DNA of 15,909 nucleotides from Archangiaceae bacterium. GTDB lineage: Bacteria > Myxococcota > Myxococcia > Myxococcales > Myxococcaceae. The stretch lies in assembly GCA_043750125.1 (NCBI GenBank), contig JAYVCD010000237.1:1-15909 (forward strand). The letters are read 5' to 3'. The position numbers and the translations under genes were made by a program. How positions within the stretch are numbered: the stretch's first letter is position 1; each line of letters begins with the position of its first letter. This document shows, in pieces, positions 1 through 13,279 of this stretch. The notes below the pieces were generated by a model, which saw only the letters and a program-made list of their open reading frames with translations, had not been told where the DNA came from and searched no databases.

Positions 1-101
1 CCGTTGATCCCGAGAGCAGTCGGTCCGTTGATCCCGAGAGCAGTCGGTCCGTTGATCCCGAGAGCAGTCGGTCCGTTGATCCCGAGAGCAGTCGAGGGAC
101 G
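1..101 (+). repeat. Head-to-tail 24-bp tandem repeat (CCGTTGATCCCGAGAGCAGTCGGT) ending in a REP-like imperfect palindrome
   Basis: Exact copies at 1-24, 25-48 and 49-72. A fourth copy at 73-94 continues as AGGGACG, giving CCGTTGATCCCGAGAGCAGTCGAGGGACG with a TCCC/GGGA stem. There are no spacers. The array may extend left of the window. Confidence 0.9.
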
Positions 102-1068
102 CTCGTTTTTCTTTGGCGTGCTGCTGCTGCTCACCCTGCTTCCGGCGGCCGCCTTTGCGCAGCGCGAGACGACGCGCGACTCGCTGGACCGGCTGGAAGA
201 AACGCTGACCCTGCGGCTCGAGGCAGGCACCGGGCTGGTGATCAAAGACCTCGTTCCGGCGATCGTCGTCAGCGTCAACCCGGCGTTCGAAGAGACGAAG
301 GCCTGGTTTCCCACTGCCGCGCTCGCCACCCTGGTTCGGGTCTTCGGAGCCGCGGGCCTTCGCTCGTGCGAGGCGTGCCGCGCTCCCCGGCTGTACATGG
401 CCGACGGAAAGATCGAGCACATCACCACCAACCTCGGCACTCCTGAGATTACCCGCCTGGACGACATGGTCCGGGGGAAGGGAGCCCCGGCGCGGACGGC
501 GATCTGGTTGGACGAGACGGCCGAAGGCGTGAGCATCCGGATCATCGACCTGCGCAACAGCCGGATCGTGATGGCCGAGAACTTCGACCCTTCGCTGACC
601 GAGCCGGCGCAAACCGAGAAGAACCTGGCGCTCGCCCGCGAGCTCGACCGGCGCGCGCGGGGCAACAGCATCACCCAGGCCTTCGTCGACGTGACCGTCT
701 TCCCCAATCAGCACATCTCGTTCGATTGGGCCGAGCAGTGGGGCGACAACAACACCAACCTCTCGGGCTTTACGATTTCAATCCTGGATCCGGTGGTGGG
801 CGTCGGCGGCTCGTACTACCGGGTGCTCCCGTTCGCCTTCAACCTGATGGTCGGAGCGAAGGTGCTGCTCAGCGTACCGACCGGGTTGGTGCGCGCTCTG
901 AGCCCGAACTCAGGCAACGTCATCGACCCGCTGCTGACCGGAGTCTTCGTGGTTCGGTTTCCGTTCGGCCGTTCGAACTACGGAATCGCGCTGACCGTGT
1001 CGACCAACGGGAAGGTCGGACTTGGATTGTCCTTGTTGAACATCTCTTTGCTGCCCTTCTTGCCATGA
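4..1068 (+). CDS. Exported protein with a CsgG/FlgO/LpoB-like periplasmic domain and a C-terminal outer-membrane beta-strand region; start uncertain (TTG at 4, 28, 52 or 76, or upstream of the window)
   Basis: The frame is open from position 1. Signal peptide FFFGVLLLLTLLPAAAFA-Q; CEAC motif; VSIRIIDLRNSRIVMA strand pattern typical of CsgG/TolB-N-like folds. The C-terminal third consists of alternating amphipathic strands (VGVGGSYY, LMVGAKVLL, YGIALTVST, VGLGLSL). The stop overlaps the next start (ATGA 1065-1068). Confidence 0.7.
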   Translation: MIPRAVGPLIPRAVGPLIPRAVGPLIPRAVEGRSFFFGVLLLLTLLPAAAFAQRETTRDSLDRLEETLTLRLEAGTGLVIKDLVPAIVVSVNPAFEETKAWFPTAALATLVRVFGAAGLRSCEACRAPRLYMADGKIEHITTNLGTPEITRLDDMVRGKGAPARTAIWLDETAEGVSIRIIDLRNSRIVMAENFDPSLTEPAQTEKNLALARELDRRARGNSITQAFVDVTVFPNQHISFDWAEQWGDNNTNLSGFTISILDPVVGVGGSYYRVLPFAFNLMVGAKVLLSVPTGLVRALSPNSGNVIDPLLTGVFVVRFPFGRSNYGIALTVSTNGKVGLGLSLLNISLLPFLP

Positions 1069-1694
1069 ACCGAACCCTGCTCATCTGTCTTGCCTTGTGC
1101 AGTGGTTGCGCTGCTCGCAACTACACCTACTACCTGATTGAACCGGCGCCGACGAAGCACCCGGCGCTGAAGGAAGAAGGCACGTTGACCCGCCCGTTCG
1201 GCTTCGGCTCGACGACCGCGATGAAGGTCCGCTGGAACGACGGGAACCTGATCACCGAGGTCGACATTCCGATGCTCGCGACCGGGCAGCGCATCGTGGT
1301 CGAGCACGGTGCGGGCAGCCGCGATGTGAAGACCATTCCTCCCACCCGCGTCGTCGCTCCGCCCCCGACGGCCGCCGACGCGTCGCTGATCGAGGCCTAC
1401 CGTGCGCGAGGCTTGCGGGTCGATGACACCGCGCCCGAAGTCAGCATCAGCCGGGCCCGAACGCTGATGCAGGAAGCCACCAAGACCGGCAACTATTCGC
1501 TCGCGCTCGAGTGGTGCGAGACGGTGTTGCAGCGGTACAAATCGCACCCGGAATTCTTGCGCGCGAAGGCCTCGCTGCTGTTGATGATGGGGGAACGCGA
1601 CAAGGCGATCGAGGTCTACGAGCAGGTCGAGACGATCGAAAGCGATCCCACGGTGCGCAAGAAGCTCGAAGAACTCCAAAAGCAGCAAAAGTAA
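1065..1694 (+). CDS. Lipoprotein with C-terminal TPR-like helices (209 aa)
   Basis: ATG 1065 overlaps the upstream TGA. MNRTLLICLALCSG-C lipobox. The segment ARTLMQEATKTGNYSLALEWCETVL...FLRAKASLLLMMGERDKAIEVYEQV fits TPR consensus. The track start at 726 is an upstream overextension. Confidence 0.8.
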   Translation: MNRTLLICLALCSGCAARNYTYYLIEPAPTKHPALKEEGTLTRPFGFGSTTAMKVRWNDGNLITEVDIPMLATGQRIVVEHGAGSRDVKTIPPTRVVAPPPTAADASLIEAYRARGLRVDDTAPEVSISRARTLMQEATKTGNYSLALEWCETVLQRYKSHPEFLRAKASLLLMMGERDKAIEVYEQVETIESDPTVRKKLEELQKQQK

Positions 1695-1708
1695 AAGGGA
1701 AACCAACA

Positions 1709-2419
1709 ATGCAAATCATCGGATTCATCTTGTTGGGCTTTGTCGTCTGGCTCGGCTTCTCGGACCGCGGCGACGCGACCGTCATTTCGGCATTCGACGG
1801 CCACGCGCTGACCATGGTGCTCGCGGGCTCGATCGCCGCAGTGTTGATCAGCTCGAGCAGCACCACTGCGCTGCGCACGCTGCTGTGCCTGCGAGAGTTC
1901 ATTCCCGGCCTGCGGTTGATCGGCAAGGCGACGAAGGAAATGGAAACCGAGCGCGACCAGCTGTACGCGATGTGGCGCGAAGGCAAGCGCAGCGGGGCGC
2001 TGTCGATCGCCGAGAAGAGCCGCTTTCCCGCGGTGAAGCAGATGGTCGATCTCATTCTCAACCGGTCTCCCGAGGTCGCCAGCGCGAAGGTCTTCCTCGA
2101 GCTGCGCCACGAAGAGCTGCTGCGGTGGCAGCCGGCGGTCAACAACTGGGAAATGCTCTCGAAGCTCGGCCCTGCGATGGGCATGGTCGGGACCATCACC
2201 GGCATGATCCAGATGTTCCGCAACATGAGCGCGGACAACCTGAACATCGGCGCCTCGATGTCGCTGGCGCTGCTGGCCACCCTGTACGGGGTCGCGTTCG
2301 GCGCGGGCATGGCCGGGCCGATCGGCCACTTCCTCAACGGACTGCTCGACGAGCGGCTGGGCTTTCTCGAGCGGTGCGAGAAGAGCGTCAACGAGCTCGT
2401 CGCCCGTGGCGGAGCGTGA
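1709..2419 (+). CDS. motA: MotA/PomA-type stator A subunit (236 aa)
   Basis: ATG 1709 follows AAAAGGGA. Two N-terminal hydrophobic segments, a cytoplasmic loop (WREGKRSGALSIAE...VKQMVDLIL), then GPAMGMVGTITGMIQM and MSLALLATLYGVAFGAGMAGPIG, the MotA/PomA TM3-TM4 signature. Confidence 0.9.
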   Translation: MQIIGFILLGFVVWLGFSDRGDATVISAFDGHALTMVLAGSIAAVLISSSSTTALRTLLCLREFIPGLRLIGKATKEMETERDQLYAMWREGKRSGALSIAEKSRFPAVKQMVDLILNRSPEVASAKVFLELRHEELLRWQPAVNNWEMLSKLGPAMGMVGTITGMIQMFRNMSADNLNIGASMSLALLATLYGVAFGAGMAGPIGHFLNGLLDERLGFLERCEKSVNELVARGGA

Positions 2420-2422
2420 TCC

Positions 2423-3040
2423 GTGCAACGGCGCGCGAAGGGACATGAAGAGAGTTGGCTGCTCAGTTACGCAGACCTGATCACCAACCTGCTGCTGTTC
2501 TTCGTCGTGCTGCTCAGCGCGGCGCAGCTGAACAAGAGCCGAATGCAGCAGATCGTCAAGAGCATCTCGGGCGCTGAACAGCCGGCGAGCCTCGAGTCGA
2601 TTCGAAAAGAAATCGACGCGCAGATCGCGAAGAAGGAACTGCAGCAGCTGGTGCAGACCACGCTGACCGCCGAAGGGCTCGAGCTGTCGTTGAATTCCGG
2701 GCTGGTGTTCGATTCGGGGAAGGCCGTCATCCGTTCCGAGTTCGACAAGACCGTCACCTCGATGCTGCAGGTCCTGGTCCCGTACTCGACGAAGTACAAC
2801 TTCGCCGTCGAGGGCCACACCGACCCGACTCCGATGCTCAGCGGCGGCAGCAACTGGGATCTTTCCAGCGGTCGCGCGATCGTCGTTCGCCAGCGACTGG
2901 AAGACATCGGCATCGTGCGCACCCGCATTCGGGTCGAGGGTTACGCGGACACCAAGCCGCTGCCCGAAGAGCAACTCAAGGGGCTTTCCCCCGAAGAACG
3001 CCTGGCCCGGCATCGCCGCGTCGTCGTGAGGATCTACTGA
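2423..3040 (+). CDS. motB: MotB/PomB-type stator B subunit with OmpA-like peptidoglycan-binding domain (205 aa)
   Basis: GTG start after GGAG. WLLSYADLITNLLLFFVVLL carries the essential Asp (D18). A plug-like amphipathic helix follows (KSRMQQIVKSI). OmpA_C motifs VEGHTD, NWDLSSGRA, GYADTKP and RHRRV are present. Confidence 0.92.
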   Translation: MQRRAKGHEESWLLSYADLITNLLLFFVVLLSAAQLNKSRMQQIVKSISGAEQPASLESIRKEIDAQIAKKELQQLVQTTLTAEGLELSLNSGLVFDSGKAVIRSEFDKTVTSMLQVLVPYSTKYNFAVEGHTDPTPMLSGGSNWDLSSGRAIVVRQRLEDIGIVRTRIRVEGYADTKPLPEEQLKGLSPEERLARHRRVVVRIY

Positions 3041-4890
3041 TGAGACCTTCAATTTTTCTGCAGTCGCTGATCTTGCTGTTCGCGCTGCCGCTGAGCGCCG
3101 GCGCCCAGTCGACCGCGATTCCGGTGCCTGAGAAGCACATTCCCGGTCCGGTGCTGATGGACCTTCGCGCGCTCGAGAGTCAGTTTGATCTCTTCTTGAG
3201 CCGCGACTGCGCCCCCGAGCGGTGCGTCTCGAAGGGCTGTACCTACCGGGACCACGCGGTGGTGGATCTTCCCCGCGGCTCTTCCCTTCCCGGGCTGGGC
3301 CAGAACGAAGGGCTCGGCGCGGTCGCTCCTCAGGAATACCTGACCCAGGCGCGGTGCGAGTTCGCCCACGAGAAATCGATTTCCGCCAAGGACGTTCAGG
3401 CGTTGGTGAAGCGGCTCGAACAGCGGCTGTCGAAAGGCTGGCTGCAGGTCACCGTCAGCCGCCAGGTGCTGGAGCCGATTTCGCCTGCGCTGGCGATTTC
3501 GCCCCCGCAACTTCCCGACCCCGCGCTGGCGGCGAAGGTCGAGCCCCCGCCTGCCCTCGCCCCCCCTCCGGCCAAGTGGGAATGGGACGTAGCGCTGCGC
3601 GAGCTGTGGGTCGGGTTGCTGCCGCACTTCTCGTGGATGATTGCCCTGCTGTTGGGCACCCTGGCGACGCTGGCCATCATCTGGGGCGGCCGCCGCCTGG
3701 GCCGCGAATCGCTGGAAGAGAAGGCGATGCTGGCGCAGCTGGCCGCAGGGGACACCCAGGAAAAGAAAGAAGAGCCCGCGCTGGCGGTGATTCCGCTTCC
3801 CACCGAAGGCGAAGATCAGCTGAAGCTTGCGGGCACGAACGAAGAGCAGGGGTTCATCACCGAGCAACAGCGGTTGTGGAACGAGCGCATCGCCCAGACC
3901 GAGCTGGGCAAGGACGAAGGCGGAGTGGTCGAGCTGCTTCGCGCCTGGCTCAAGGCCGGTGAGTTTGCCTATCTGGCGAAGGCGATCTTCGTCTTCGGAG
4001 AACGGCTCTCGCTGGCGTTCTCTTCCGACGGGCAGCTGGCGGTGCGGAAGGTCGAATTTGCCGAGTACCTCAAGGATCTCGATGAGAAGCAGCTGCCGAC
4101 CGACGCCGAATTCTTCCGGGTGCTCAACCACCACGCGATTTCGTCCTCGCTGCTCGCGCAGTCGGACGCAGAGAGCTACCGCAGCCTTCGCGAAGAGTTT
4201 GGGGCCGACGGGCTGGCCCACCTGATCGAGAGCCTGCCGGCACGAAATGGAGCGCTGCTGTTCGCGATGGTGCCTTCCGATTGCCAGCACGAAGTGTCGC
4301 GCGCGCTGTCCCAGGACCTGCGGTTGCAGGTGGCCACCCAGCTGCTGGTGTCGAACCGGATCAGCAATGAAGAGCGACAGCACCTGTTCGAGACGCTCGA
4401 CAACGCGCGGGCGGGGCTGCCTTTGCAGATGCCGGCCGAGAGCAGCTCGCACGAGATCATGGACCGCGGGCGCGAGTTTGACGCCGCCGGGGCCTTGTCC
4501 GTTCTGTGCTCGCACCTGGATCCCGAGGACCGGAAAGCGGTCTTCACCCGGGCGCTCAACCGCGCCAGCGGCACCCACCCGTTCTGGTACGAAGAGATTC
4601 TCTACCCCGACATGCTGTTGAAGCTGCCGACCGAGTTGCAGGCAGACCTGCTGCTCGAGGTCGACATTCGGGCGCTGGCGGGTTGGACCTCGATGCAATC
4701 GGCGGCCTGGCAGGAAGGGTTCCTCTCACGCCTTTCGCCCACGCTGAACAACGCGATGCGGGCCAACCTCGGGGTCGGCTCGCGCGCCAATCAACTGCAG
4801 CAGGCGCGACGCGGGCACTCCGAGCTGGTCAGCGGGGTGAAGAAGCTGGTCGCGCGCGGCAAGGTCTCGTTCGCCCAGATCCTCGCGTAA
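3040..4890 (+). CDS. Putative FliF-FliG-like fusion rotor protein: signal peptide, RBM-like periplasmic domain, Pro-rich linker, TM helix, FliG-M/C-like cytoplasmic region (616 aa)
   Basis: TGATG coupling to motB. N-terminal signal peptide (LILLFALPLSAGA-Q) and TM at about 3631-3690. The C-terminal ~225 aa align nearly gap-free by eye with FliG-M and FliG-C (LLLEVD vs LLQEVD, EGFLSRLS vs EKFLRNMS, VKKLVARGKVSF vs VRRLAETGEMVI; reference recalled from memory). Confidence 0.75.
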   Translation: MRPSIFLQSLILLFALPLSAGAQSTAIPVPEKHIPGPVLMDLRALESQFDLFLSRDCAPERCVSKGCTYRDHAVVDLPRGSSLPGLGQNEGLGAVAPQEYLTQARCEFAHEKSISAKDVQALVKRLEQRLSKGWLQVTVSRQVLEPISPALAISPPQLPDPALAAKVEPPPALAPPPAKWEWDVALRELWVGLLPHFSWMIALLLGTLATLAIIWGGRRLGRESLEEKAMLAQLAAGDTQEKKEEPALAVIPLPTEGEDQLKLAGTNEEQGFITEQQRLWNERIAQTELGKDEGGVVELLRAWLKAGEFAYLAKAIFVFGERLSLAFSSDGQLAVRKVEFAEYLKDLDEKQLPTDAEFFRVLNHHAISSSLLAQSDAESYRSLREEFGADGLAHLIESLPARNGALLFAMVPSDCQHEVSRALSQDLRLQVATQLLVSNRISNEERQHLFETLDNARAGLPLQMPAESSSHEIMDRGREFDAAGALSVLCSHLDPEDRKAVFTRALNRASGTHPFWYEEILYPDMLLKLPTELQADLLLEVDIRALAGWTSMQSAAWQEGFLSRLSPTLNNAMRANLGVGSRANQLQQARRGHSELVSGVKKLVARGKVSFAQILA

Positions 4891-6884
4891 TGAAGACCTT
4901 CGGCCCGCTGGGAATGCTCCTCGTGCTCTGCGCCTGCAACAAGGTGCCGATCATCGACATCCACGCGGGCTTTGCTCTGGCCGATGCCACCTGGTTCGAG
5001 GACGAGCAGACGCTGTTCATCTTCTACAAGGTCAATGCCGAGCAGGGGCTGGGGCCCGACAGCCAGATTGAAGTCACCTGGCGCACCGACGACGTAGAAG
5101 TTCCGTGGACGGCGGTCGAGACCTTGACCCCGATTCACACCCACATTCCGGTCGACTGCGGTCCGCACACGATGTGCGGCAGCACCAGCCTCAAGATCCA
5201 AAGGGTGCCGAGGCTGGTCGGGGTTCGGCTTCGCTATCACAAGGAAGGCTCGGTCTTCCTCACCGCCCCGGTCACCTACAACATCATCGGCACCGGCCCC
5301 GCGTTCACCCACCGCAGCCTGATCGTCTACGGGGTCTTCGAGCGGGCCAACAACACGGTGCAGTGGCGCGCGCGTCACCAGTTTCCCACCCTGCGCAACG
5401 AGGACGTGCAGGGCCTGGGGTTGCTGCGGGACTTCCGGATTACGGATCCGCGGTACGGCTCTGTCGTCGCACCGATGGGCAACCCTTACGGCTACGCGTC
5501 CGCGGCCACCTGCCCCACCACCCTGACCGCCTTGAGCTGGGGGCCGGTCGCGACCAATGGGCGGGCGATCTTCGATGTGAACAAGCTGCCGCTGGAAGCC
5601 TCGACCGCCCCCGGAATCTGCGCGCAGTCGGTGGTGACCGACGCGAAGGGCACGTTCGAGGCGGTGGCGATTGCGCGCAAGAATCCCGATGTCCACCCGG
5701 CTTTCCCGGTGTTGCGCACTCCGATTCGCGCCAATACCGAGGTGGGGTTTCTGCTTCGGCCGTGCATGCGGGAAATTTCGAAGGTCCACCTGTCGATGCA
5801 GGTGCAGCGGTTGATGCTCGAGGGCGCTCCGGAAATCTGCATCGACGACTTCAAGAACCCGGCGTTTGCCGATTCTCTCGCGGCGAGGCTTCGGTTGAAG
5901 ATCGACGAAGTGCGCGCCGCGGGAAAGGACATGGTCCTCACGCTCGCGCTGCACCACGACGATTCCAAAGGAGAGCTGGGCCTCGCGGTCGAGAAGGCGC
6001 TCGAGCAGATTCTTCCCTTCGAGCGGGACAAGACTTCGCCGCGGGTCAGTGGGGCGTTCGTCTTCGACAGTCTGAAGTACGCGATCGTGAGCCCGACGAT
6101 GCGCTCGCTGGTGCTGTGGTGCCCAGCGAGCATCGATGCGGTCGACCTCGACAAGATCCCCGATGAGGCCCAGCGCTCGTGTCCCCTGGTGCCCGATTTT
6201 CCGGACCTGAAGCTCGGGCCCTTCAAGTTCAGCAACCTGCCGATCCTCCCCAGTCGGCCGCAGTACCTGACCTTCATCGCAAAATATTCCGAAGCGCAGG
6301 CCGGGAAGATGCTCGAGCTGGGCTTCCTTGCTCCAGAGCGAACGCCGATTTCACAGAACGTTCAGCTCGGCGAATTTGGGGTGGCGAGCTTCTTCAACAA
6401 TGAGCGGCTCACGGCCGCGCCCACCGACGCCTTCTCGTTCTGCGCCGGCGGCGACCCGCTGTCCTCGAACGTCGTGTTTCGCAGCGCGTCCTTTCCGGCG
6501 CCGCAGCCGATTTCGAGCCTGCCGGAATTTCACAAGTTCGCTCCGGCGAGCGCGTACGAAATTGGCTTGTTCTGGAATTTCCCTTTCCTGTTGAAGGCGA
6601 AATACGAGTTCGTGGTCGCAGGCGCGGCGACCGCATTCTCAGTCACGGTTCCGTTCGGGATCACCGACGTGGCCCATAAAAATTACGCCAGCGAGCTGTG
6701 GACCGCCGCCGAGTTCCCGGTGGCGAAGACGCTCGGGCAGTGCACCCGCTACTGCGATCACCCGACCTTCGACACGGGCGGGGTCTACAACGTCGCCGCG
6801 ACGTATCGCGAGGCGTTCGCCGCCCAGTGCTACGACCCGCTGTACCCGACGCCCGCGGACGGACCCTTTCCCCGTGATCCGTAG
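4890..6884 (+). CDS. Large Cys-rich lipoprotein of unknown function (664 aa)
   Basis: TAATG coupling at 4888-4892. MKTFGPLGMLLVLCA-C lipobox. Multiple Cys, some closely paired (CGPHTMC, CTRYC). The track start at 4506 is an overextension. Confidence 0.75.
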   Translation: MKTFGPLGMLLVLCACNKVPIIDIHAGFALADATWFEDEQTLFIFYKVNAEQGLGPDSQIEVTWRTDDVEVPWTAVETLTPIHTHIPVDCGPHTMCGSTSLKIQRVPRLVGVRLRYHKEGSVFLTAPVTYNIIGTGPAFTHRSLIVYGVFERANNTVQWRARHQFPTLRNEDVQGLGLLRDFRITDPRYGSVVAPMGNPYGYASAATCPTTLTALSWGPVATNGRAIFDVNKLPLEASTAPGICAQSVVTDAKGTFEAVAIARKNPDVHPAFPVLRTPIRANTEVGFLLRPCMREISKVHLSMQVQRLMLEGAPEICIDDFKNPAFADSLAARLRLKIDEVRAAGKDMVLTLALHHDDSKGELGLAVEKALEQILPFERDKTSPRVSGAFVFDSLKYAIVSPTMRSLVLWCPASIDAVDLDKIPDEAQRSCPLVPDFPDLKLGPFKFSNLPILPSRPQYLTFIAKYSEAQAGKMLELGFLAPERTPISQNVQLGEFGVASFFNNERLTAAPTDAFSFCAGGDPLSSNVVFRSASFPAPQPISSLPEFHKFAPASAYEIGLFWNFPFLLKAKYEFVVAGAATAFSVTVPFGITDVAHKNYASELWTAAEFPVAKTLGQCTRYCDHPTFDTGGVYNVAATYREAFAAQCYDPLYPTPADGPFPRDP

Positions 6885-7701
6885 CGTTCTGCTCGCAGTG
6901 GTCCTGGCCCTGCCGCCGGCATTTGCCGCCGACGGCCCCCGCGTGCCCCAGGCTCAGCCGCCGCCCGAAGGGAAGCTCGCACCGAAGCAGGAAGACACGA
7001 GCATCGAGCGGTACCGGACCCCGTTCCAGGTGCTCAGTGAAAGCACGATTGGGCTCGCGTCCCGGGCGGTGCTCTTCGATTGGCGCAAGAGCACCGTCGC
7101 GGCGGGTTTGACCACCGGAGCCCTGCTCGAATTGAACAATTTCTACAGCACCCGGCTGGGCGGCTTCGTGCGGATGCCGGTCGGCAATCTGACCGCTGAG
7201 CTGGCCGTGACCCGGGTGTTCACCTGGGGCAGCGACAGCTCGGAAAAACTGTCGCTGACCCCGTATCGCCAGTCGGGGCGTCCGAGCCGCATCGAGCTCG
7301 AGGTGAACCTGGCCTACGCGTTGTTGGAAGGAGTGGGAACCCCGCGGCTGGGACTGCTGCCCAGCGCCGAGCTGGTGTTCTCGATCGACGTAGGGTTTCG
7401 GTACCTCTACTACCCGGGCGCATTGGGGAAGGCGAACGCCGGCCAGGTGGTCGAGGCGATCTTCGCTGCCAAGATTTCTGAGCGCGAGCTCGACTACCTC
7501 GAGCGCGAGCGACTTCCCGGAATGCAGATCGACGCGGGCCGGTACGGCTTGCTGGCCGGGTTTGCCCTGGACCTCTACTTCCGCACCGGGATCTTCCTCG
7601 AGCCGAAGGTGATGCTCGCGATTCCGGTTCTCTCAGGCCTCAGTGGCTCGCGGCTCGGGTGGTGGTGGGAATTGTCGATGGCGCTGGGCGTGTCGTTGTG
7701 A
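6874..7701 (+). CDS. Putative small outer-membrane beta-barrel protein (275 aa)
   Basis: Signal peptide VLLAVVLALPPAFA-A. Amphipathic strands TRLGGFVRM, TAELAVTRV, IELEVNLAY, FSIDVGFRY, LAGFALDLYF, IFLEPKVML and a terminal strand WWWELSMALGVSL. 11-nt overlap with the previous gene. Confidence 0.7.
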   Translation: MIRSVLLAVVLALPPAFAADGPRVPQAQPPPEGKLAPKQEDTSIERYRTPFQVLSESTIGLASRAVLFDWRKSTVAAGLTTGALLELNNFYSTRLGGFVRMPVGNLTAELAVTRVFTWGSDSSEKLSLTPYRQSGRPSRIELEVNLAYALLEGVGTPRLGLLPSAELVFSIDVGFRYLYYPGALGKANAGQVVEAIFAAKISERELDYLERERLPGMQIDAGRYGLLAGFALDLYFRTGIFLEPKVMLAIPVLSGLSGSRLGWWWELSMALGVSL

Positions 7702-9599
7702 CGAGCTGGCTGTTCCTCGCGCTGGTGCTGTCGACCGGGGCAGAGCAGAGCGAGCCCGACCCTTCGAACCAGACCCTGCTTTTCTACAACGCCCGAATGG
7801 CGATGCGAGAAGGGCGGCCGGCGGACACGCTGAAGCTGTGGCTGCTGCGAAACAGCATTGCCGAGCAGGGGTTCATTGGCAGCAACGACGAAGAGTTCCG
7901 CTCGGTGGTCTGGGCGGCGCTCGGGAGCCTGGGCCTGTGCCAGGACGGTTTCGCCAAAGACGTAGAGGGCGGAGCGGGCCTGTGGCCGCTGTCGCTTCAC
8001 AACTGGGTGCTCTACTCGTCGCGGGGAATCCCTCCGGGGCCGCGCAACCCGTACGACGCTTTCGAGGCCGCGCGGCAGCAGCGGTTCATTTCACTGCACA
8101 GCGTGCTGTCGATCGCCGAGCTGCGCACGGTGAGCTTCTTCCGCAAGTCGTGCTTCTTGCCTGAGACGACGCTGATTGCCCTGGGGAAGTCTCCCTCGCT
8201 GGATCTGACCGACCGGCTCTCGACCGGCCCTTTCTTGCGGCAGCTGCTGGTGTTGTCGTTGAAGACCCTGGTGCGCGAGAAGGTGCAGAGCGTGAGCGCG
8301 ATCGAGGCTCGGATCTTCGACCTCGACCTCGCGATGGCCCAGATGCTCGAACGGAAGGCGCGGCGGGCGGGAATGGCAGCGAAGCAGCGCGCCAGGACCC
8401 TGGGGATTTCTGAAGCCGGAGCCGGCGAAGCCCGCGAGCAGGCGGCGCAGTGGCCGGCCCATTCGGCGCAAGCGGCCTTCTTGCGCAAGAGCCTCACCTG
8501 GGACTCGAGCGAGTGGCTGACCTTGAACCGACAGCGCCGGCTCTTCCTCTACGCCCAGGCCAAGGCGTTCTCTACCCCGGCCCAACCGCCCGACCCGCTG
8601 GTGCTCTCGCTGATCGACTCGCTCATCGACCGCAACGAAGGCGCCGAGCTGGAGTCGTGGATTGGGAATTTCGATGCGAAAGATTCCGCGACACGGCGCA
8701 CGGCGCTCACCTCGGGAGAACGGGGAAAGCGGTTGCTCGAGCTCGAGCCCGCCAGCGGCTTTCGGGAAAGAGCGACGATTGCAATGCACCGAGGGGTCGA
8801 ATTCCTCGAGGCGGGGTCGATGCAGGAAGCGCTGCGCTCGTTCGCGTACGCGATGGCGAAGTCCGAAGAGTCGCGCGACGCCGCGGTGACGTTGTCCCTG
8901 GCCCGGCGTTGGGTGTCGTACGTGCTGTCGCGCTACGAGACGAACGAGCAGGTGATTGCGACGCTGAAGGCGCTGGTGCCGCGACAAGAATACAACCTGG
9001 TGATCGAAGATTTGATCTGGCGGGCGGCGCTGCGCGCGGACGAGAAGTCGTTTGACCTGGTGGTGGCGAGCCTTCAGCGCGGCAGCGCACTGGACGCCCG
9101 GGTCGCGCGGCTTCGATTGCTCGCGCAGGGAAAGCAGGGGGCGCTGGGCACGGACCTGCGCGACGCGACGGTCGACGAGCCGCATCTGGCGCTGCGTTTT
9201 GCGCGGCAGTTGCTCGAGAAGCTGGAAGCCGAAGACGTGGACGTGCGCCGTGCGAACATTCCGATGCTCAAGCTGTTGCGACAGATCTTCGACTCGTTGA
9301 TCACGTCGAAGGCGAAGGCCCAGGCTCGCGCGGCAGAAGAGTTGATCGCGCGCGCCCAGGGCATTCTCGAAGGCTTGAGCCTGTTCGACAATTCGACCGT
9401 GGGAAAAGCGCGCGAGCTCTCGCCGCGACACGAGACCTTCGCCGGGAACATTCGGCTGGCTCCTTCCGACCCGTTGCCGTGGCCGTTCGAGACCCCGGTC
9501 GCCGAGGCGCCCTCGCCGTTCACCCCGCTGGTGCTGCGGCCGGTGGAATGGCGCGACCCCAAAGGGGCGCTGGTGTTCGGCTGGAAGGTCACCGATTGA
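7698..9599 (+). CDS. Large exported alpha-helical (TPR-like) protein (633 aa)
   Basis: GTGA overlap at 7698-7701. Short signal-like N-terminus MTSWLFLALVLSTGA. TPR-like pairs LFYNARMAMREGRPADTLKLW and AMHRGVEFLEAGSMQEALRSFAYA. Confidence 0.7.
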   Translation: MTSWLFLALVLSTGAEQSEPDPSNQTLLFYNARMAMREGRPADTLKLWLLRNSIAEQGFIGSNDEEFRSVVWAALGSLGLCQDGFAKDVEGGAGLWPLSLHNWVLYSSRGIPPGPRNPYDAFEAARQQRFISLHSVLSIAELRTVSFFRKSCFLPETTLIALGKSPSLDLTDRLSTGPFLRQLLVLSLKTLVREKVQSVSAIEARIFDLDLAMAQMLERKARRAGMAAKQRARTLGISEAGAGEAREQAAQWPAHSAQAAFLRKSLTWDSSEWLTLNRQRRLFLYAQAKAFSTPAQPPDPLVLSLIDSLIDRNEGAELESWIGNFDAKDSATRRTALTSGERGKRLLELEPASGFRERATIAMHRGVEFLEAGSMQEALRSFAYAMAKSEESRDAAVTLSLARRWVSYVLSRYETNEQVIATLKALVPRQEYNLVIEDLIWRAALRADEKSFDLVVASLQRGSALDARVARLRLLAQGKQGALGTDLRDATVDEPHLALRFARQLLEKLEAEDVDVRRANIPMLKLLRQIFDSLITSKAKAQARAAEELIARAQGILEGLSLFDNSTVGKARELSPRHETFAGNIRLAPSDPLPWPFETPVAEAPSPFTPLVLRPVEWRDPKGALVFGWKVTD

Positions 9600-10249
9600 C
9601 TCCTAAGGAAATGCATCAGGCGATGAAGGCGCGCAAGCAGGAGCTGCGCACGGCCCTGCGGGCGATGCGGAAGGCGGCGCGCGAGAAGATGGACCAGAAC
9701 CCCGCGGTGCAGCGCGCGAAGGCCCGGCGGCGGCGAATACGGCGAGCGATTGGAATTGCGATCGGGGTGCTGCTGCTGTTGCTCATCCGCTGCGACTGCG
9801 GGCCCGGGGTGCCACCGGAAGGGCCGAAGGTCGAGGCCCCGGCGCCCAAAGAGCTCAAGCCGAAGAAGACGGTCACGGTGCGGGTGGGGCCGAAGAAGCC
9901 GCTCCAGGGCGACGGGACGAAGCAGAACCGCGGCGGCCTCGGCATCGGAGCTCCGGCGGCTCCGACGTGGATCGACCAGTTTCAGGTGCAGGTCGCCGCG
10001 AGGAGCCCGCGACTGGCGTTGTGCTTCACCGGAATCGATCGGCCGGGGGCGCTGCGGTGGTCGGCCTCGGTCAACCCCCAAAGCGGCGCGGTGTCGGATC
10101 ACGAGCTCGAGCCGGTCGGGCAGAGCAGCGAGCTGTCGACCGAGCAGCGCGAGTGCGTGGTGCGGGTGCTCTCGAGCCCCGTCTACAAGCTGACGGCTCC
10201 GGAGAAAGAGGCGCTGCCGAATCGGGTCAGCCTGGTGATCGAGTTCTGA
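9596..10249 (+). CDS. Single-pass inner-membrane protein with Pro/Lys-rich linker and TonB-C/AgmX-PglI-C-like domain (~217 aa; alternative ATG starts 9611 and 9623)
   Basis: TTGA overlap at 9596-9599. Highly basic N-terminus, TM AIGIAIGVLLLLLI, and linker GPGVPPEGPKVEAPAPKELKPKK. C-terminal helix-strand-strand-helix-strand pattern with Cys pair (LALCF...ECVVRVL) and terminal strand VSLVIEF. Confidence 0.65.
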   Translation: MTPKEMHQAMKARKQELRTALRAMRKAAREKMDQNPAVQRAKARRRRIRRAIGIAIGVLLLLLIRCDCGPGVPPEGPKVEAPAPKELKPKKTVTVRVGPKKPLQGDGTKQNRGGLGIGAPAAPTWIDQFQVQVAARSPRLALCFTGIDRPGALRWSASVNPQSGAVSDHELEPVGQSSELSTEQRECVVRVLSSPVYKLTAPEKEALPNRVSLVIEF

Positions 10250-10927: not shown

Positions 10928-11389
10928 CTACCGACCCTTCGCCCCTTCTCCGCGCAAGATCAGGCAGGTGCTGCTCGCCTTGGCGACCAACTTCTCGTCG
11001 GGCACGGACACCACTTCGCACTCGAGGTAGACCATCGCCTTCCCGGCGTGCACCGCCCTGGCGCGCGCCTCGAGCGTGGCGTCCCGAACCGGGCGCAGGA
11101 AGTTGATTTTCAGCTCGAGGGTGGTGAACGACTCGCCTTCCGCGAGCAGCGAGACGCACGCCATGCCCATCGCTCCATCTGCGAGATCGCAAAGAATCCC
11201 GCCGTGCAGCGTGCCCATCGGGTTGGCGTGGCGGGCGAGCCGGGCCTCCAACTTGAACACTGCAGCGCCCTTCTCGACCGAGACGGGCTCAAACCCAATC
11301 GTGACCGCCACCGGAGGCGGCAGCGTCATCGGAAACTCCGGAACCTTCTCGCCCTTCAACAAACGCTGAATTGCCTCGAGTGGAATAAT
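10928..11389 (-). CDS. PaaI-family (hotdog fold) thioesterase, ~153 aa; start uncertain
   Basis: HANPMGTLHGGILCDLADGAMG and TTLELKINFLRPV motifs. The best RBS (AGGAG 11401-11397) sits 7 nt before ATT 11389. Other in-frame ATGs are the track start at 11443, one at 11422 and the internal MTLPPP. Confidence 0.85.
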   Translation of the reverse strand: MIPLEAIQRLLKGEKVPEFPMTLPPPVAVTIGFEPVSVEKGAAVFKLEARLARHANPMGTLHGGILCDLADGAMGMACVSLLAEGESFTTLELKINFLRPVRDATLEARARAVHAGKAMVYLECEVVSVPDEKLVAKASSTCLILRGEGAKGR

Positions 11390-11505
11390 GGGGTGTCTCC
11401 TGTAAATGACGCCGCATAGCATCGGGTGTTGCGCTTTGTGCATCCCCGTTGTGTCTAGCCAGAAAGCTTCCTCCCATTTCGTCCACTCTCCTCTCTGGTG
11501 AACCC

Positions 11506-11814
11506 TTGAAAACGACCAAAAAACCGCCGACCCGCACGCTCAACCCGATTCGGAACCCGGGAAAGACCGGCAAAGGGGCAACCAAGCCGGAAGCCAAATC
11601 GAAGAAAGCCGGCTGGAAAGCCGAGCATCCGCTGAACCCGATGCCCAACCGCAAGGTCCCCACTCACCCCCTCAACCCGATCGCGCAGCCTCCCGTTCCG
11701 GCCAAGCCGATTGTCATGGTGAATCCGATCGCCCAGCCTCCCGTTCCGGCCAAGCCGATTGTCTCGGTGAACCCGATGCCGCAGCCGGCGAAGAAAATTG
11801 AGTACTACAAGTAG
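11506..11814 (+). CDS. Small basic Pro/Lys-rich repeat peptide (~102 aa) with repeated (L/V)NP(I/M) motifs
   Basis: TTG 11506 follows GGTGA (track start 11449). GC3-rich codons. Synonymous differences between repeat copies keep the peptide. The stop lies 5 nt before the next GTG. Confidence 0.6.
   Translation: MKTTKKPPTRTLNPIRNPGKTGKGATKPEAKSKKAGWKAEHPLNPMPNRKVPTHPLNPIAQPPVPAKPIVMVNPIAQPPVPAKPIVSVNPMPQPAKKIEYYK
11674..11784 (+). repeat. 48-bp coding tandem repeat, about 2.3 copies (NPIAQPPVPAKPIVxV)
   Basis: Units start at 11674, 11722 and 11770 (AACCCGATCGCGCAGCCTCCCGTTCCGGCCAAGCCGATTGTC / AATCCGATCGCCCAGCCTCCCGTTCCGGCCAAGCCGATTGTC / AACCCGATGCCGCAG). Confidence 0.9.
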
Positions 11815-11819
11815 CTCGA

Positions 11820-12590
11820 GTGCTCGACCTCAGGTCTGTCCATCGGGTGACTCGACGGGTGCACCTGCGTTTTCAAGCAGAGGCGCTGCCCGAGACCTTG
11901 AGCGAAGAAGCCTTCGCTCGCTTTGATCCATCGGTCTATTCGAGCCAGACGTTGGCGTGGGCGCGCGCCGCGTGGGAATCGCGGCTGTGCGACGAGTACC
12001 GTTCGCAGGTCGCGCTCACGCTGCTGCTCGCCGACTTGACCCAGGAAGGTTTCGCGATCGACGTGCTCGGCGCTGCGATTCGCGTCGTCCGCGACGAAGC
12101 CCGGCACGTCGAGCTGTGTCGCCGAATGGTCCGGGCGCTCGGCGGCAGCGATCTGATCGACGCAGAAGTCGCCCACGTCAGCGCTGAAGGCGACACCGGC
12201 CTGACGCGGGTGCTCGACCTCTCGCTGGGGTTCCTCTGCATCGGCGAGACGCTGTCCGCGCGGTTGATCGCCGCGGTGCGGGCCAATGCCAAAGACCCGC
12301 TCGCCCACGCGGTGCTGACCCAGATGCTGGCCGACGAATCGATTCACGGACAGTTCGGCTGGACAGTGCTCGAGCTCATCACTCCGGTGCTGTCAGCGCC
12401 CCAGCGGGCAGCCGTACGACGACGGGTTCCCAAGTTGCTGGCCCAGATGAAAATGGCCGTCGACGAATCAGCAGGCGATGGCTCGTCGACCAATCCCTTC
12501 GGAGCGCTGAGCGGAAAAGATCGCACCCGCGTCTTCAAGACCTGCGTGGCGAAGGACATTCGCCCCCGGCTGAATCGGCTCGGCTACTAA
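11820..12590 (+). CDS. Ferritin-like diiron-carboxylate domain protein (256 aa)
   Basis: Two E...DExxH ligand sets: DEYRS...RDEARH and CIGETLS...ADESIHGQFGW. Confidence 0.8.
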   Translation: MLDLRSVHRVTRRVHLRFQAEALPETLSEEAFARFDPSVYSSQTLAWARAAWESRLCDEYRSQVALTLLLADLTQEGFAIDVLGAAIRVVRDEARHVELCRRMVRALGGSDLIDAEVAHVSAEGDTGLTRVLDLSLGFLCIGETLSARLIAAVRANAKDPLAHAVLTQMLADESIHGQFGWTVLELITPVLSAPQRAAVRRRVPKLLAQMKMAVDESAGDGSSTNPFGALSGKDRTRVFKTCVAKDIRPRLNRLGY

Positions 12591-12598
12591 AGAACCGC

Positions 12599-13225
12599 TC
12601 AATCCTTCGAAGCGGGATCTCGGCTCTTCATCGTGCCCATCACGCCATCGATCCACTTGTAGCTGATGCCGTAATTCTTCGACGAATCGGCAAAGTGGTG
12701 CGCCATGTGATGGCTGCGCTGCCCCCGCCCCCAGGCGGTGAGTGGCTTGCGGTAGTGCGTCGACCAATGAATGAAGTCGTACCAGAGGTACCCCGACACC
12801 ACTCCGACGAAGAACGGAATGGTCGCGTCAGGGCGGCCGATGAGGAACAAGCCTCCACCAATCAACGCGGCGAGCGGAAGACTGGCTCCAATCGGCATCA
12901 CCAGCCGGGTCGCATCATCCGGATACTTGTGGTGGTAGCCGTGGACGATGTCGTGCAACCGGCGGGTGAAGGGGCTGTTGCCTTCCCAGTGGAAGAAGCC
13001 CTTGTGGAGGAAGTACTCCATCAATTGCCAGCCCACCCAGCCGAGAGGGAAGAACATCGCGGTCATCACCAGCGTGGTCAGGCCCTGGTACAGCGCCCAC
13101 GACTGGAGGGCGATCGCCGCGGGGATGTAGAGGACGAACGGGGTCGCCGGGTGCACCTTCGAAAAAAACTCGAAGAAATTGCTCTCGAACATCCGACCGC
13201 TCTCGTTCCGGAGGTAGTCCTTCAT
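12599..13225 (-). CDS. Sterol desaturase/fatty acid hydroxylase family protein (FA2H-like, ~208 aa)
   Basis: His boxes EYFLHKGFFH, HDIVHGYHH, YDFIHWSTH and HHMAHH, plus RLVMP and NYG. GAGG lies 7 nt before ATG 13225 (alternative ATG 13231). Confidence 0.9.
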   Translation of the reverse strand: MKDYLRNESGRMFESNFFEFFSKVHPATPFVLYIPAAIALQSWALYQGLTTLVMTAMFFPLGWVGWQLMEYFLHKGFFHWEGNSPFTRRLHDIVHGYHHKYPDDATRLVMPIGASLPLAALIGGGLFLIGRPDATIPFFVGVVSGYLWYDFIHWSTHYRKPLTAWGRGQRSHHMAHHFADSSKNYGISYKWIDGVMGTMKSRDPASKD

Positions 13226-13279
13226 GGTCATGCCTCTTAGCTCAACAGTGGAGGCCCGGTTCAAGGGGGCCCGACAACT

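Follow-up and report, generated by a model that had tools for sequence, protein, structure and literature searches.

A conserved gene cluster of an Archangiaceae bacterium encodes an apparently undescribed, flagellum-independent envelope system with a MotAB stator and a FliG-like protein

Contig JAYVCD010000237.1 of a metagenome-assembled genome (MAG) from an Archangiaceae bacterium (GCA_043750125.1) carries a cluster of genes that encodes a MotA- and MotB-type stator together with a membrane-anchored FliG-like protein, and this cluster appears to represent a real but so far undescribed envelope system that does not depend on a flagellum. The window analyzed here is the entire contig (C237; 15,909 bp, approximately 65% G+C), one of 460 contigs in a MAG that is 89% complete. 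Nine plus-strand open reading frames (ORFs), g1 to g9, overlap or nearly abut one another and span positions 76 to 10249, with a TTG start assumed for g1. The g1 stop and g2 start share an ATGA at 1065, gaps of 14 and 3 nucleotides (nt) precede g3 (1709) and g4 (2423), motB (g4) and g5 overlap via TGATG at 3040, and the junctions further on are TAATG at 4890, an 11-nt overlap at 6874 to 6884, GTGA at 7698, and TTGA at 9596. An earlier note on this DNA had described nine co-oriented genes with these junctions, all of which were found as given there; only its start of g1, at position 4, was revised, to the likelier TTG at 76, since bases 1 to 94 form a tandem repeat and the orthologues are 314 to 330 amino acids (aa) long. 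A simple hydropathy and N-terminus check identified signal peptides in g1, g5, and g7 (and a weak one in g8), lipoboxes in g2 and g6, four transmembrane (TM) helices in MotA, and one TM helix each in MotB, g5, and g9, and this backs the proposal that the products are envelope targeted.

The FliG-like protein, g5 (positions 3040 to 4890, plus strand), is a 616-aa membrane-anchored protein that is predicted to consist of a signal peptide, a periplasmic domain, a TM helix, a variable linker, and a cytoplasmic FliG-like domain. The signal peptide would be cleaved between AGA and QS or may alternatively serve as a first TM helix. It is followed by a periplasmic domain of approximately 165 aa with four invariant cysteines (C57, C62, C67, and C106) and by the TM helix at residues 191 to 219 (positions 3610 to 3696, plus strand), in which W199 and R218 are invariant and after which RRLGR provides a positive-inside signal. 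Approximately 320 conserved cytoplasmic residues lie beyond the linker. The region from approximately residue 300 to residue 610 (positions 3937 to 4869, plus strand) is, by profile comparison with PDB sequences, homologous to part of the N-terminal domain and to the M and C domains of FliG. The profile of the 35-member g5 family matched T. maritima FliG (1lkv; E value of 1.4e-8) and Aquifex FliG, and its alignment to Salmonella FliG (8umd_B; E value of 3.9e-7) covered residues 28 to 321 of 331. These profile matches along nearly the whole length of FliG show that the 616-aa protein carries a true FliG homologue, in agreement with the earlier note. Neighbors of a g5 homologue in the ESM Atlas were all long (480 to 720 aa) FliG_C/FliG_M proteins from several phyla, which we take as a lead only. 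Canonical FliG is a soluble protein of approximately 330 aa that binds FliF and FliM/FliN, whereas g5 is a bitopic membrane protein of nearly twice that length.

Directly upstream of g5 are g3 (positions 1709 to 2419, plus strand), encoding a 236-aa MotA/PomA-type stator A subunit (PF01618 MotA_ExbB, 55.5 bits), and g4 (positions 2423 to 3040, plus strand), encoding a 205-aa MotB-type stator B subunit in which a TM helix with an Asp is followed by a plug and an OmpA-like peptidoglycan-binding domain (MotB_plug, 56.8 bits; OmpA, 44.6 bits). This Asp, which we take to correspond to D32 of E. coli MotB, lies in a SYADLIT motif and is invariant in 25 of 25 orthologues. When the g3 family profile (26 orthologues) was compared with PDB sequences, all 10 of the matches at an E value of ≤0.01 were flagellar MotA/PomA chains (best, 1.2e-14), and no ExbB, TolQ, ZorA, or GldL match was obtained at that threshold. 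The best NCBIfam matches for g3 were likewise all PomA, MotA, or MotP. We also constructed a tree (quick search, SH-aLRT support) of 46 MotA/ExbB/TolQ homologues, labeled by NCBIfam, from this MAG, one Archangium genome, and three flagellated carriers of the cluster. The 13 cluster MotAs formed one clade (SH-aLRT of 96) that joined five flagellar-type MotAs against all 27 TolQ/ExbB-type proteins (SH-aLRT of 99), and the five other homologues from the MAG were all of the TolQ/ExbB type. Pfam, the PDB profile search, and the tree thus agree with the proposed MotAB stator, placing it with MotA/PomA-MotB and not with Exb/Tol. The MotA alignment retains two TM prolines, and the cytoplasmic loop of MotA is the best-conserved part of the whole cluster, with a mean column identity of 70%. 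Within this loop, a conserved basic residue (K93/R94) and an acidic residue (E102) lie at most one position out of register with R90 and E98 of E. coli, cytoplasmic MotA charges to which the available text of a published study ascribes a functional role (PMC7564593). A plug, a linker, and an OmpA-homologous domain are described, in the available part of another study, as separating flagellar stators from "generic" nonflagellar ones (PMC12505986); because the plug and OmpA domain mark flagellar stators in that scheme, g3 and g4 have a flagellar stator design in a nonflagellar setting.

MotA, MotB, and a membrane-anchored FliG-like protein were found together in at least three different gene sets. 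In Archangium gephyra, a second trio (locus L123; G002, approximately 3650 to 6915) consists of MotA, MotB, and a 576-aa protein that has the same layout as g5, matches FliG_C at 30.7 bits, and aligned with the g5 family at positions 69 to 592 with an hhalign probability of 97.7%; trios of this type are present in 17 of 176 genomes of the family. A Silvanigrellaceae MAG encodes a TPR protein, MotA, and MotB followed by a 922-aa membrane protein (locus L120; G004:C70, 3999 to 9144) that scores above the cut-off for both FliG_M (33.4 bits) and FliG_C (36.1 bits) and that gave an hhalign probability of 94.7% against g5. Both trios share with the cluster the same three-gene core, its order, and, in the FliG-like protein, the succession of a signal peptide, a periplasmic domain, a TM helix, and a FliG-like domain, but they differ in their accessory genes, none of the accessory proteins of the cluster being shared by tblastn, and in their periplasmic domains of approximately 160 or 440 aa. 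Of the indirect evidence for action of the stator on the FliG-like protein, this recurrence of the trio is the strongest. As far as our searches show, these two trios are also undescribed in the literature. The Silvanigrellaceae MAG has another locus (L122; G004:C87, 3908 to 7427) in which MotA and MotB are followed by a 624-aa membrane protein with no detectable FliG similarity, and hhalign comparisons of this protein and of a 774-aa protein from locus L121 with g5 were not significant.

The earlier note had suspected that the operon might reach left of the window, and contig C236 of the same MAG was found to carry three further genes, u1, u2, and u3, and to end in the same 24-bp repeat with which the window begins. 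Among 25 related loci with long flanks, the plus-strand genes preceding g1 included u1 in 25, u2 in 25, and u3 in 23. The unit is one of 12 genes, u1 to u3 followed by g1 to g9, within which the assembly broke because a repeat-bearing insertion separates u3 from g1; in relatives these two genes overlap by 9 nt, and in this MAG the insertion lies between them. The 24-bp tandem repeat (3.9 copies, positions 1 to 94, no strand assigned) is the contig-end copy of this insertion and lies outside the machine, although it seems to supply the TTG start of g1. An inverted copy precedes it, giving a strong predicted hairpin (-61.4 kcal/mol; z of -5.7), and the element is also present at positions 1 to 135 of locus L084 on C236; an exact search of both strands found no further copy of the 24-bp unit in the MAG. 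The u1 (231 aa) and u2 (214 aa) products are lipoprotein-like, the u3 product (405 aa) combines a signal peptide with an HCPxC motif and ends in Phe, and none of the three had a Pfam or NCBIfam match.

Conservation of the unit was assessed in the best 80 loci of 125 GTDB species-genome stretches that matched the search pattern, 112 of which encode a relative; a few of the MAG taxon labels among the 80 loci look implausible. In all 80, the detected cluster genes were colinear, on one strand, in identical order, and without an internal gap. The u1, u2, and u3 genes were detected in 63, 66, and 67 of these loci, g1 to g9 were all present in 53, and all 12 genes were present in 50. Of the 30 incomplete loci, 29 stop within approximately 600 nt of the locus end, and in the other, L027, the DNA upstream of g2 is unrelated over 4.5 kb. 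This gene arrangement is far beyond chance. Ratios of dN to dS, calculated against two relatives, ranged from 0.075 to 0.39 across all nine genes, values that are rough since dS was 0.6 to 1.2, and the second best conserved protein was g2, at 0.075 to 0.12. All nine genes are under purifying selection. Three more distant loci were also examined. One retains u1, u2, u3, g1, g2, motA, motB, and g5 to g9 in colinear order; the two others (L131 and L132) have a divergent motAB 1.3 to 2 kb upstream and keep the order of u1, u3, g1, g2, g5, g6, and g7, with no detectable g8, g9, or u2. Because they are retained in the distant loci, u1, u3, g1, g2, MotA, MotB, g5, g6, and g7 constitute the core. The check for synteny that the earlier note had called for was thus run with a positive outcome, the gene set being colinear in 80 of 80 loci and found across two phyla.

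The carriers are gliding and predatory bacteria of soil and sediment and include Archangium, Hyalangium, Cystobacter, many Myxococcaceae MAGs, and Polyangia, Bradymonadia, and Silvanigrellaceae MAGs. By their records, the cultured carriers include Archangium gephyra, A. violaceum, A. minus, and Hyalangium versicolor. The g5 family has 156 representatives (50% clusters) at an E value of ≤0.001 among 1.84 billion proteins, or 241 at the same threshold in 90% clusters among the 8,000 candidates scored. With a stricter filter (E value of ≤1e-10), g5 was detected in at least 56 of 401 sampled Myxococcota genomes, a figure that is a floor. It was present in 38 of 171 genomes of the window's own family and was patchy by genus, with 12/12 and 10/12 genomes in some genera and 0/32, 0/21, and 0/17 in others. 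The group of the model organism probably lacks the cluster, which would explain the silence of the literature. In the phylum of the Silvanigrellaceae MAG (Bdellovibrionota in NCBI), 48 of 131 genomes matched g5 at an E value of ≤1e-5. For approximately 29 of these 48, the match extended to the periplasmic N-terminal part, in frames of 400 to 640 aa, with one (G437) cut by the contig to a 171-aa frame; the remaining matches were canonical FliG or FliG-like proteins of 760 to 895 aa.

That the cluster is INDEPENDENCE from flagella was borne out in the MAG, in Archangium genomes, and in flagellated carriers. No export, rod, hook, filament, FliM/N, or Che family was detected in the 19 window ORFs scanned, as the earlier note had observed; for FliM/FliN, the search covered the cluster proteins scanned and was not made genome wide. 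The MAG itself, 89% of which is represented, had no Flagellin_N or Flg_bb_rod match, and two complete Archangium genomes also had no flagellin or rod match. Three other carriers do have flagellin and rod, and each of these has its own FliF (132 to 183 bits) and a canonical FliG in a frame of approximately 345 aa (107 to 142 bits); in the two carriers for which the positions could be seen, fliF adjoins fliG, and both are far from the cluster. The proposed independence from flagella therefore stands on carriers that have no flagellin or rod and on flagellated carriers with separate FliF and FliG. Three outcomes had been named beforehand as speaking against the system, namely, genes not syntenic elsewhere, carriers always possessing a flagellum that lacks its own rotor and stator genes, and a 616-aa protein with no FliG fold; as judged from sequence comparison, none of the three appears to be the case. 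FHIPEP and SctJ genes are each present twice in the MAG, in keeping with the two type III secretion system (T3SS) loci of Myxococcales described in the available text of PMC3459982, where these loci are reported to be without FliG and MotAB. One T3SS-like locus of this MAG (L001, contig C284, 494 to 2835, minus strand) consists of an SctJ gene (284 aa; YscJ_FliF, 79 bits) and then a gene for a 488-aa protein that matches FliG_C at 36.9 bits (cut-off, 23.3).

The remaining products of the cluster are envelope proteins with few recognizable domains. The g1 gene (positions 76 to 1068, plus strand; start uncertain, with TTG 76 in the last repeat unit) encodes a secreted protein of approximately 330 aa that has a conserved CEAC motif and is beta-rich in its C-terminal half, and g2 (positions 1065 to 1694, plus strand) encodes a 209-aa probable lipoprotein with a C-terminal TPR (TPR_14, 24.6 bits; cut-off, 23.5). 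The 664-aa lipoprotein encoded by g6 (positions 4890 to 6884, plus strand) belongs to no known family, has many invariant Cys, His, and Trp residues, and is kept in both phyla; all 384 of its relatives are named either "hypothetical protein" or "Lipoprotein." A TPR-like scaffold and two lipoproteins had been predicted, and the TPR of g2 was recovered by Pfam and the lipoboxes were found in g2 and g6. The g7 gene (positions 6874 to 7701, plus strand) encodes a 275-aa beta-rich protein that appears from its N terminus to be secreted and whose family consensus ends in Phe, and g8 (positions 7698 to 9599, plus strand) encodes a 633-aa protein of no known family with a weak signal peptide, undetected in the most distant syntenic forms. 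The last gene, g9 (positions 9596 to 10249, plus strand), encodes a 217-aa bitopic protein with a basic cytoplasmic N terminus, a TM helix, a Pro-rich linker, and a periplasmic domain of approximately 100 aa with two invariant Cys residues. Its description as TonB-like held for this layout and failed for the sequence, with neither the TonB_C nor the TolA model matching any of 26 members and no PDB chain matched. The beta-rich u3, g1, and g7 proteins are, judging by their predicted features, probably located in the outer membrane (OM).

Searches with these proteins were otherwise negative. No Pfam, NCBIfam, PADLOC, or PDB sequence match was obtained for g1, g6, g7, g8, g9, or u1 to u3, profile searches of g6, g8, g9, u3, g1, and g7 against PDB sequences gave nothing below an E value of 0.1, and when g9, g6, and g8 were scanned member by member with Pfam (26 sequences each), only scattered chance matches appeared. 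The best scores in an Atlas search with a g6 homologue (0.80) were at chance level. By hhalign, u3 and g1 aligned over 71 columns around the CxxC motif (E value of 0.03; probability of 1.6%), which was not counted, and nothing was found for u3 versus g7, g5 versus u3, or g5 versus g1. No Rfam family matched in the window or in C236, and promoter and terminator scans gave nothing exceeding shuffled sequences.

Genes on either side of the unit appear to be unrelated to it. Directly upstream in this MAG lies a gene for a 424-aa Cys-rich VWA lipoprotein (L084 on C236, 2769 to 4043, minus strand) that is weakly CglB-like (57 bits; cut-off, 200); it was considered as a member of the unit and rejected, being found at that place in 2 of 80 related loci. 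Three true CglB genes are encoded elsewhere in the genome (425, 419, and 330 bits with the same NCBIfam library). Past position 10249, both strands carry genes that are not conserved beside the cluster, the two with any match having it in 1 of 80 loci each; among their products are a TPR protein, a thioesterase, a TadA/VirB11-type ATPase, and a fatty-acid hydroxylase. The ATPase (positions 13930 to 15675, plus strand; 581 aa) is a secretion ATPase of the TadA/CpaF/VirB11 type that matches T2SSE at 174.7 bits and is extended at its C terminus by approximately 250 aa; it too was considered as part of the unit and rejected, being in place in 1 of 80 loci. The genes at 10928 to 13264, on both strands, encode the thioesterase, which is of the 4HBT type, the fatty-acid hydroxylase, and an AurF-like di-iron protein that scores under the cut-off; they may form a small lipid-modification set and have no synteny tie to the cluster. 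A 48-bp tandem repeat (11674 to 11786; 2.4 copies, 89% matches) lies within a 121-aa ORF (11449 to 11814) that has no family match.

The cluster was then compared with known ion-driven systems. It resembles the rotor-stator core of the flagellum in its MotA/PomA-type A subunit, in a MotB with Asp, plug, and OmpA anchor, and in the adjoining FliG homologue, and g5, being anchored in the membrane, mimics a FliF-FliG fusion; when such fusions are engineered, they assemble rings, according to the available text of PMC6079021. It differs in having no export apparatus, rod, hook, filament, FliM, or FliN, in the absence from g5 of the torque-helix charges and EHPQR motif considered below, in the periplasmic domain of g5, which has no similarity to FliF, and in nine partner proteins of no known family. 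With Agl-Glt/Nfs it shares the host phylum and a parts list of an ion-driven 5:2-type motor, a TPR lipoprotein, a TonB-like bitopic protein, and beta proteins of the OM (a location that is predicted here). AglRQS is described as TolQ/TolR-like, mobile, and without a peptidoglycan anchor in the available part of PMC13104615, whereas the present cluster has a MotA/PomA-type motor, an OmpA-anchored MotB, and a FliG-like partner. No NCBIfam or Pfam match to Agl, Glt, or Cgl was found for the cluster proteins, with a library whose CglB model works and whose other Glt coverage is uncertain. Ton and Tol-Pal systems likewise have operons in which a 5:2 motor of the inner membrane is encoded with a Pro-rich bitopic protein, a TPR protein, and a peptidoglycan binder of the OmpA type; the cluster differs from them in having its A subunit on the MotA side of the tree, no B subunit of the ExbD/TolR type, no TonB_C, TolA, or TolB match, and a FliG homologue in the cytoplasm. 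The output of MotA-type units is cytoplasmic. The GldLM/PorLM motor of the type IX secretion system (T9SS) is similar as a nonflagellar motor, driven by proton motive force, that is coupled to lipoprotein and OM modules for gliding and secretion, but its output passes through the long periplasmic GldM and not through a cytoplasmic FliG-like protein, and Pfam and NCBIfam scans of the cluster gave no GldL, GldM, GldK, or GldN match. Zorya and SiiAB also contain nonflagellar MotAB homologues with a peptidoglycan-binding B subunit, as described in the available text of PMC12204202. Zorya is marked by a ZorA whose cytoplasmic tail is long, together with ZorC/D or ZorE. PADLOC returned a generic ZorB-type similarity for g4 (62 bits) with no ZorA, ZorC, or ZorD, and no match for g3 or the other seven cluster proteins of the window, and a Zorya or defense system was therefore rejected. 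Neither a type I secretion system nor a giant adhesin is present in the cluster. To our knowledge, neither Zorya nor SiiAB has a FliG-like partner. The family scans thus bear out the view that the cluster is distinct from Agl-Glt, Tol/Exb, Zorya, and T9SS.

With moderate confidence, we propose that a plug-gated, peptidoglycan-anchored MotA5B2 stator acts on the FliG-like domain of g5 and that g5 passes the work to a module of lipoproteins and beta-rich proteins. MotB would be fixed to the peptidoglycan by its OmpA-like domain and gated by its plug. In MotA5B2 stators, MotA surrounds MotB and turns as ions pass the MotB Asp, and the g3 protein would behave in this way as ions pass the invariant Asp of g4. 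The large and highly conserved cytoplasmic domain of MotA would then act on the FliG-like domain of g5, which would take the place of the flagellar C-ring. Anchored in the inner membrane, with a layout like that of a miniature FliF-FliG fusion, g5 might form an array or ring that is pushed round or along, and its TM helix and periplasmic domain would relay the work to three lipoproteins (u1, the TPR-bearing g2, and g6) and to the beta-rich u3, g1, and g7, with g8, g9, and u2 as putative lineage-specific additions. We infer the MotA-g5 contact, the movement of g5, the OM location, and the output; for the last of these, our guess is surface movement or export, such as adhesin transport for surface motility or the release of polymer or vesicles. 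A bolder form of the proposal, in which MotA5B2 turns a ring of the FliF/FliG-fusion-like g5 as a second kind of rotary motor that drives an OM module instead of a rod and filament, is possible but tentative.

Several observations weigh against stator action on g5 and against the homologies that underlie it. At an E value of ≤0.1, FliG_C matched only 2 and FliG_M only 1 of 35 g5 members, the window's g5 itself passes neither gathering score, and the best Pfam match of the family is MgtE_N (20 of 35 members), for which g5 alone reaches 24.2 bits, below the cut-off of 25.9. MgtE, a nonrotary Mg2+ channel, also has a FliG-like helical domain, and it was matched in the PDB at an E value of 0.002. 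The torque-helix residues K264, R281, D288, D289, and R297 of Salmonella FliG align with S, T, A, N, and Q in g5, this stretch is the least conserved part of the 35-member family, and the EHPQR motif of FliG reads LPPR. Because neither these charges nor EHPQR is conserved, a canonical rotor-stator contact is not supported; the conserved cytoplasmic charges of g5 lie elsewhere (E226/E227, R283, R440, R498, E532, and position 534). Between the TM helix and the FliG-like part lies a variable linker of approximately 50 residues. For the stator, the NCBIfam scores fall short of the equivalog cut-offs (60.2 versus 341 bits for g3 and 108.4 versus 283 bits for g4). The rotor had been proposed to be FliF-FliG-like, and only the FliG half of that claim is upheld by profile homology. 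The FliF half is a matter of layout, in which the signal peptide (or first TM helix) and the helix at residues 191 to 219 would set the periplasmic domain between two membrane segments, compatible with a ring-building protein of the FliF/SctJ type. YscJ_FliF matched 0 of 35 members (E value of ≤0.1), and the only hhalign match of the g5 family to six FliF/SctJ sequences, 16 columns at the C-terminal tip of FliF, had a probability of 0.4% and was not counted.

The lost torque-helix charges and EHPQR motif, the MgtE_N matches, and the flexible linker would all be expected if the FliG-like domain of g5 were a docking scaffold that only recruits, gates, or regulates MotAB, by analogy with the role of the related N domain in MgtE, so that the complex would be a regulated ion channel, a sensor, or a peptidoglycan anchor in which nothing turns. 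We consider this unlikely, in that the cytoplasmic loop of MotA is the best-conserved part of the cluster (70%), with K93/R94 and E102 near the register of R90/E98, in that the g5 profile aligns along FliG residues 28 to 321, beyond a single MgtE_N-like repeat, and in that the plug-gated, OmpA-anchored design is that of torque-generating stators in the available text of PMC12505986. It is also conceivable, if distinctly unlikely, that MotAB energizes g9 in the manner of a Ton or Tol transducer, with g9 pulling on the beta-rich OM proteins for import, export, or OM tethering and g5 as an accessory. The layout of g9 (an N-in TM helix, a Pro-rich linker, and a small periplasmic domain) and the presence in one cluster of three secreted beta-rich proteins, a TPR lipoprotein, and a Pal-like OmpA domain fit such an arrangement, and force transducers with 5:2 motors are still emerging, as the available part of PMC12204202 indicates. 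The A subunit, however, is of the MotA/PomA and not the ExbB/TolQ type, g9 has no TonB_C or TolA match (0/26) and no PDB chain, and g8 and g9 were undetected in L131 and L132, whereas g5 was always detected.

There is, in our estimation, a small chance that the cluster is a known myxobacterial or Bdellovibrio envelope machine in a specialized form that is beyond recognition by sequence searches, belonging either to the Agl-Glt/Nfs gliding-sporulation family or, as an accessory, to the Myxococcales T3SS. The similar parts list (motor, TPR lipoprotein, TonB-like protein, and OM beta proteins), the carriers' membership in gliding and predatory phyla, the weakly CglB-like VWA lipoprotein just upstream in this MAG, and a T3SS said to be without FliG and MotAB (PMC3459982, available text) would all accord with this. 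Yet no gliding or T3SS model of NCBIfam or Pfam matches the cluster proteins, although the same library finds the three true CglB genes elsewhere in the genome; only 2 of 80 loci have the VWA gene in place; the stator, being of the peptidoglycan-anchored MotB type, is unlike AglQS; and whole genera of the family have no cluster match (0/32, 0/21, and 0/17), even though a T3SS locus was reported in all then-available Cystobacterineae genomes (PMC3459982, available text). Myxococcota are thought to descend from flagellated ancestors, as stated in the available part of PMC2330069, and the genes might in principle be left over from an ancestral flagellar motor, decaying and without a function today. 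This is close to refuted by ORFs that are intact and colinear in 80 of 80 loci, by dN/dS values of 0.08 to 0.39 in nine genes, and by the presence of the cluster in flagellated genomes that have a complete and separate fliF and fliG.

Searches of the full-text literature found no account of a nonflagellar MotAB with a membrane FliG-like partner, papers on FliG-like proteins or FliG homologues being judged by their titles and the starts of their abstracts. The study that classes stators as flagellar or generic treats plug-gated, OmpA-anchored stators, like FliG, as a flagellar hallmark, and "Myxococc" is absent from its main text insofar as that text was available (PMC12505986); the available text of PMC12204202 lists the known systems with 5:2 motors and does not mention FliG. 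Rotor proteins without a filament occur in 11% of nonmotile species according to the available part of PMC12199754, in which their purpose is asked, and the present cluster offers a concrete and testable object for that question. Taken together, these results point to an undescribed ion-powered machine that works without a flagellum, encoded by a conserved and selected system of 9 to 12 genes that is present in cultured Archangium and Hyalangium strains. If g5 is driven by MotAB, the system would be a new member of the ion-driven envelope machines, alongside the flagellum, Ton, Tol, Agl-Glt, T9SS, and Zorya, and approximately nine families of proteins whose function is unknown would gain a context. 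The system would also bear on how the parts of the flagellar motor came together: should the tentative rotary form of the proposal be true, then the cluster, with its paralogous trios, would be a sister or survivor of a preflagellar rotor-stator module and would show the use of "half a motor" in nonflagellated bacteria.

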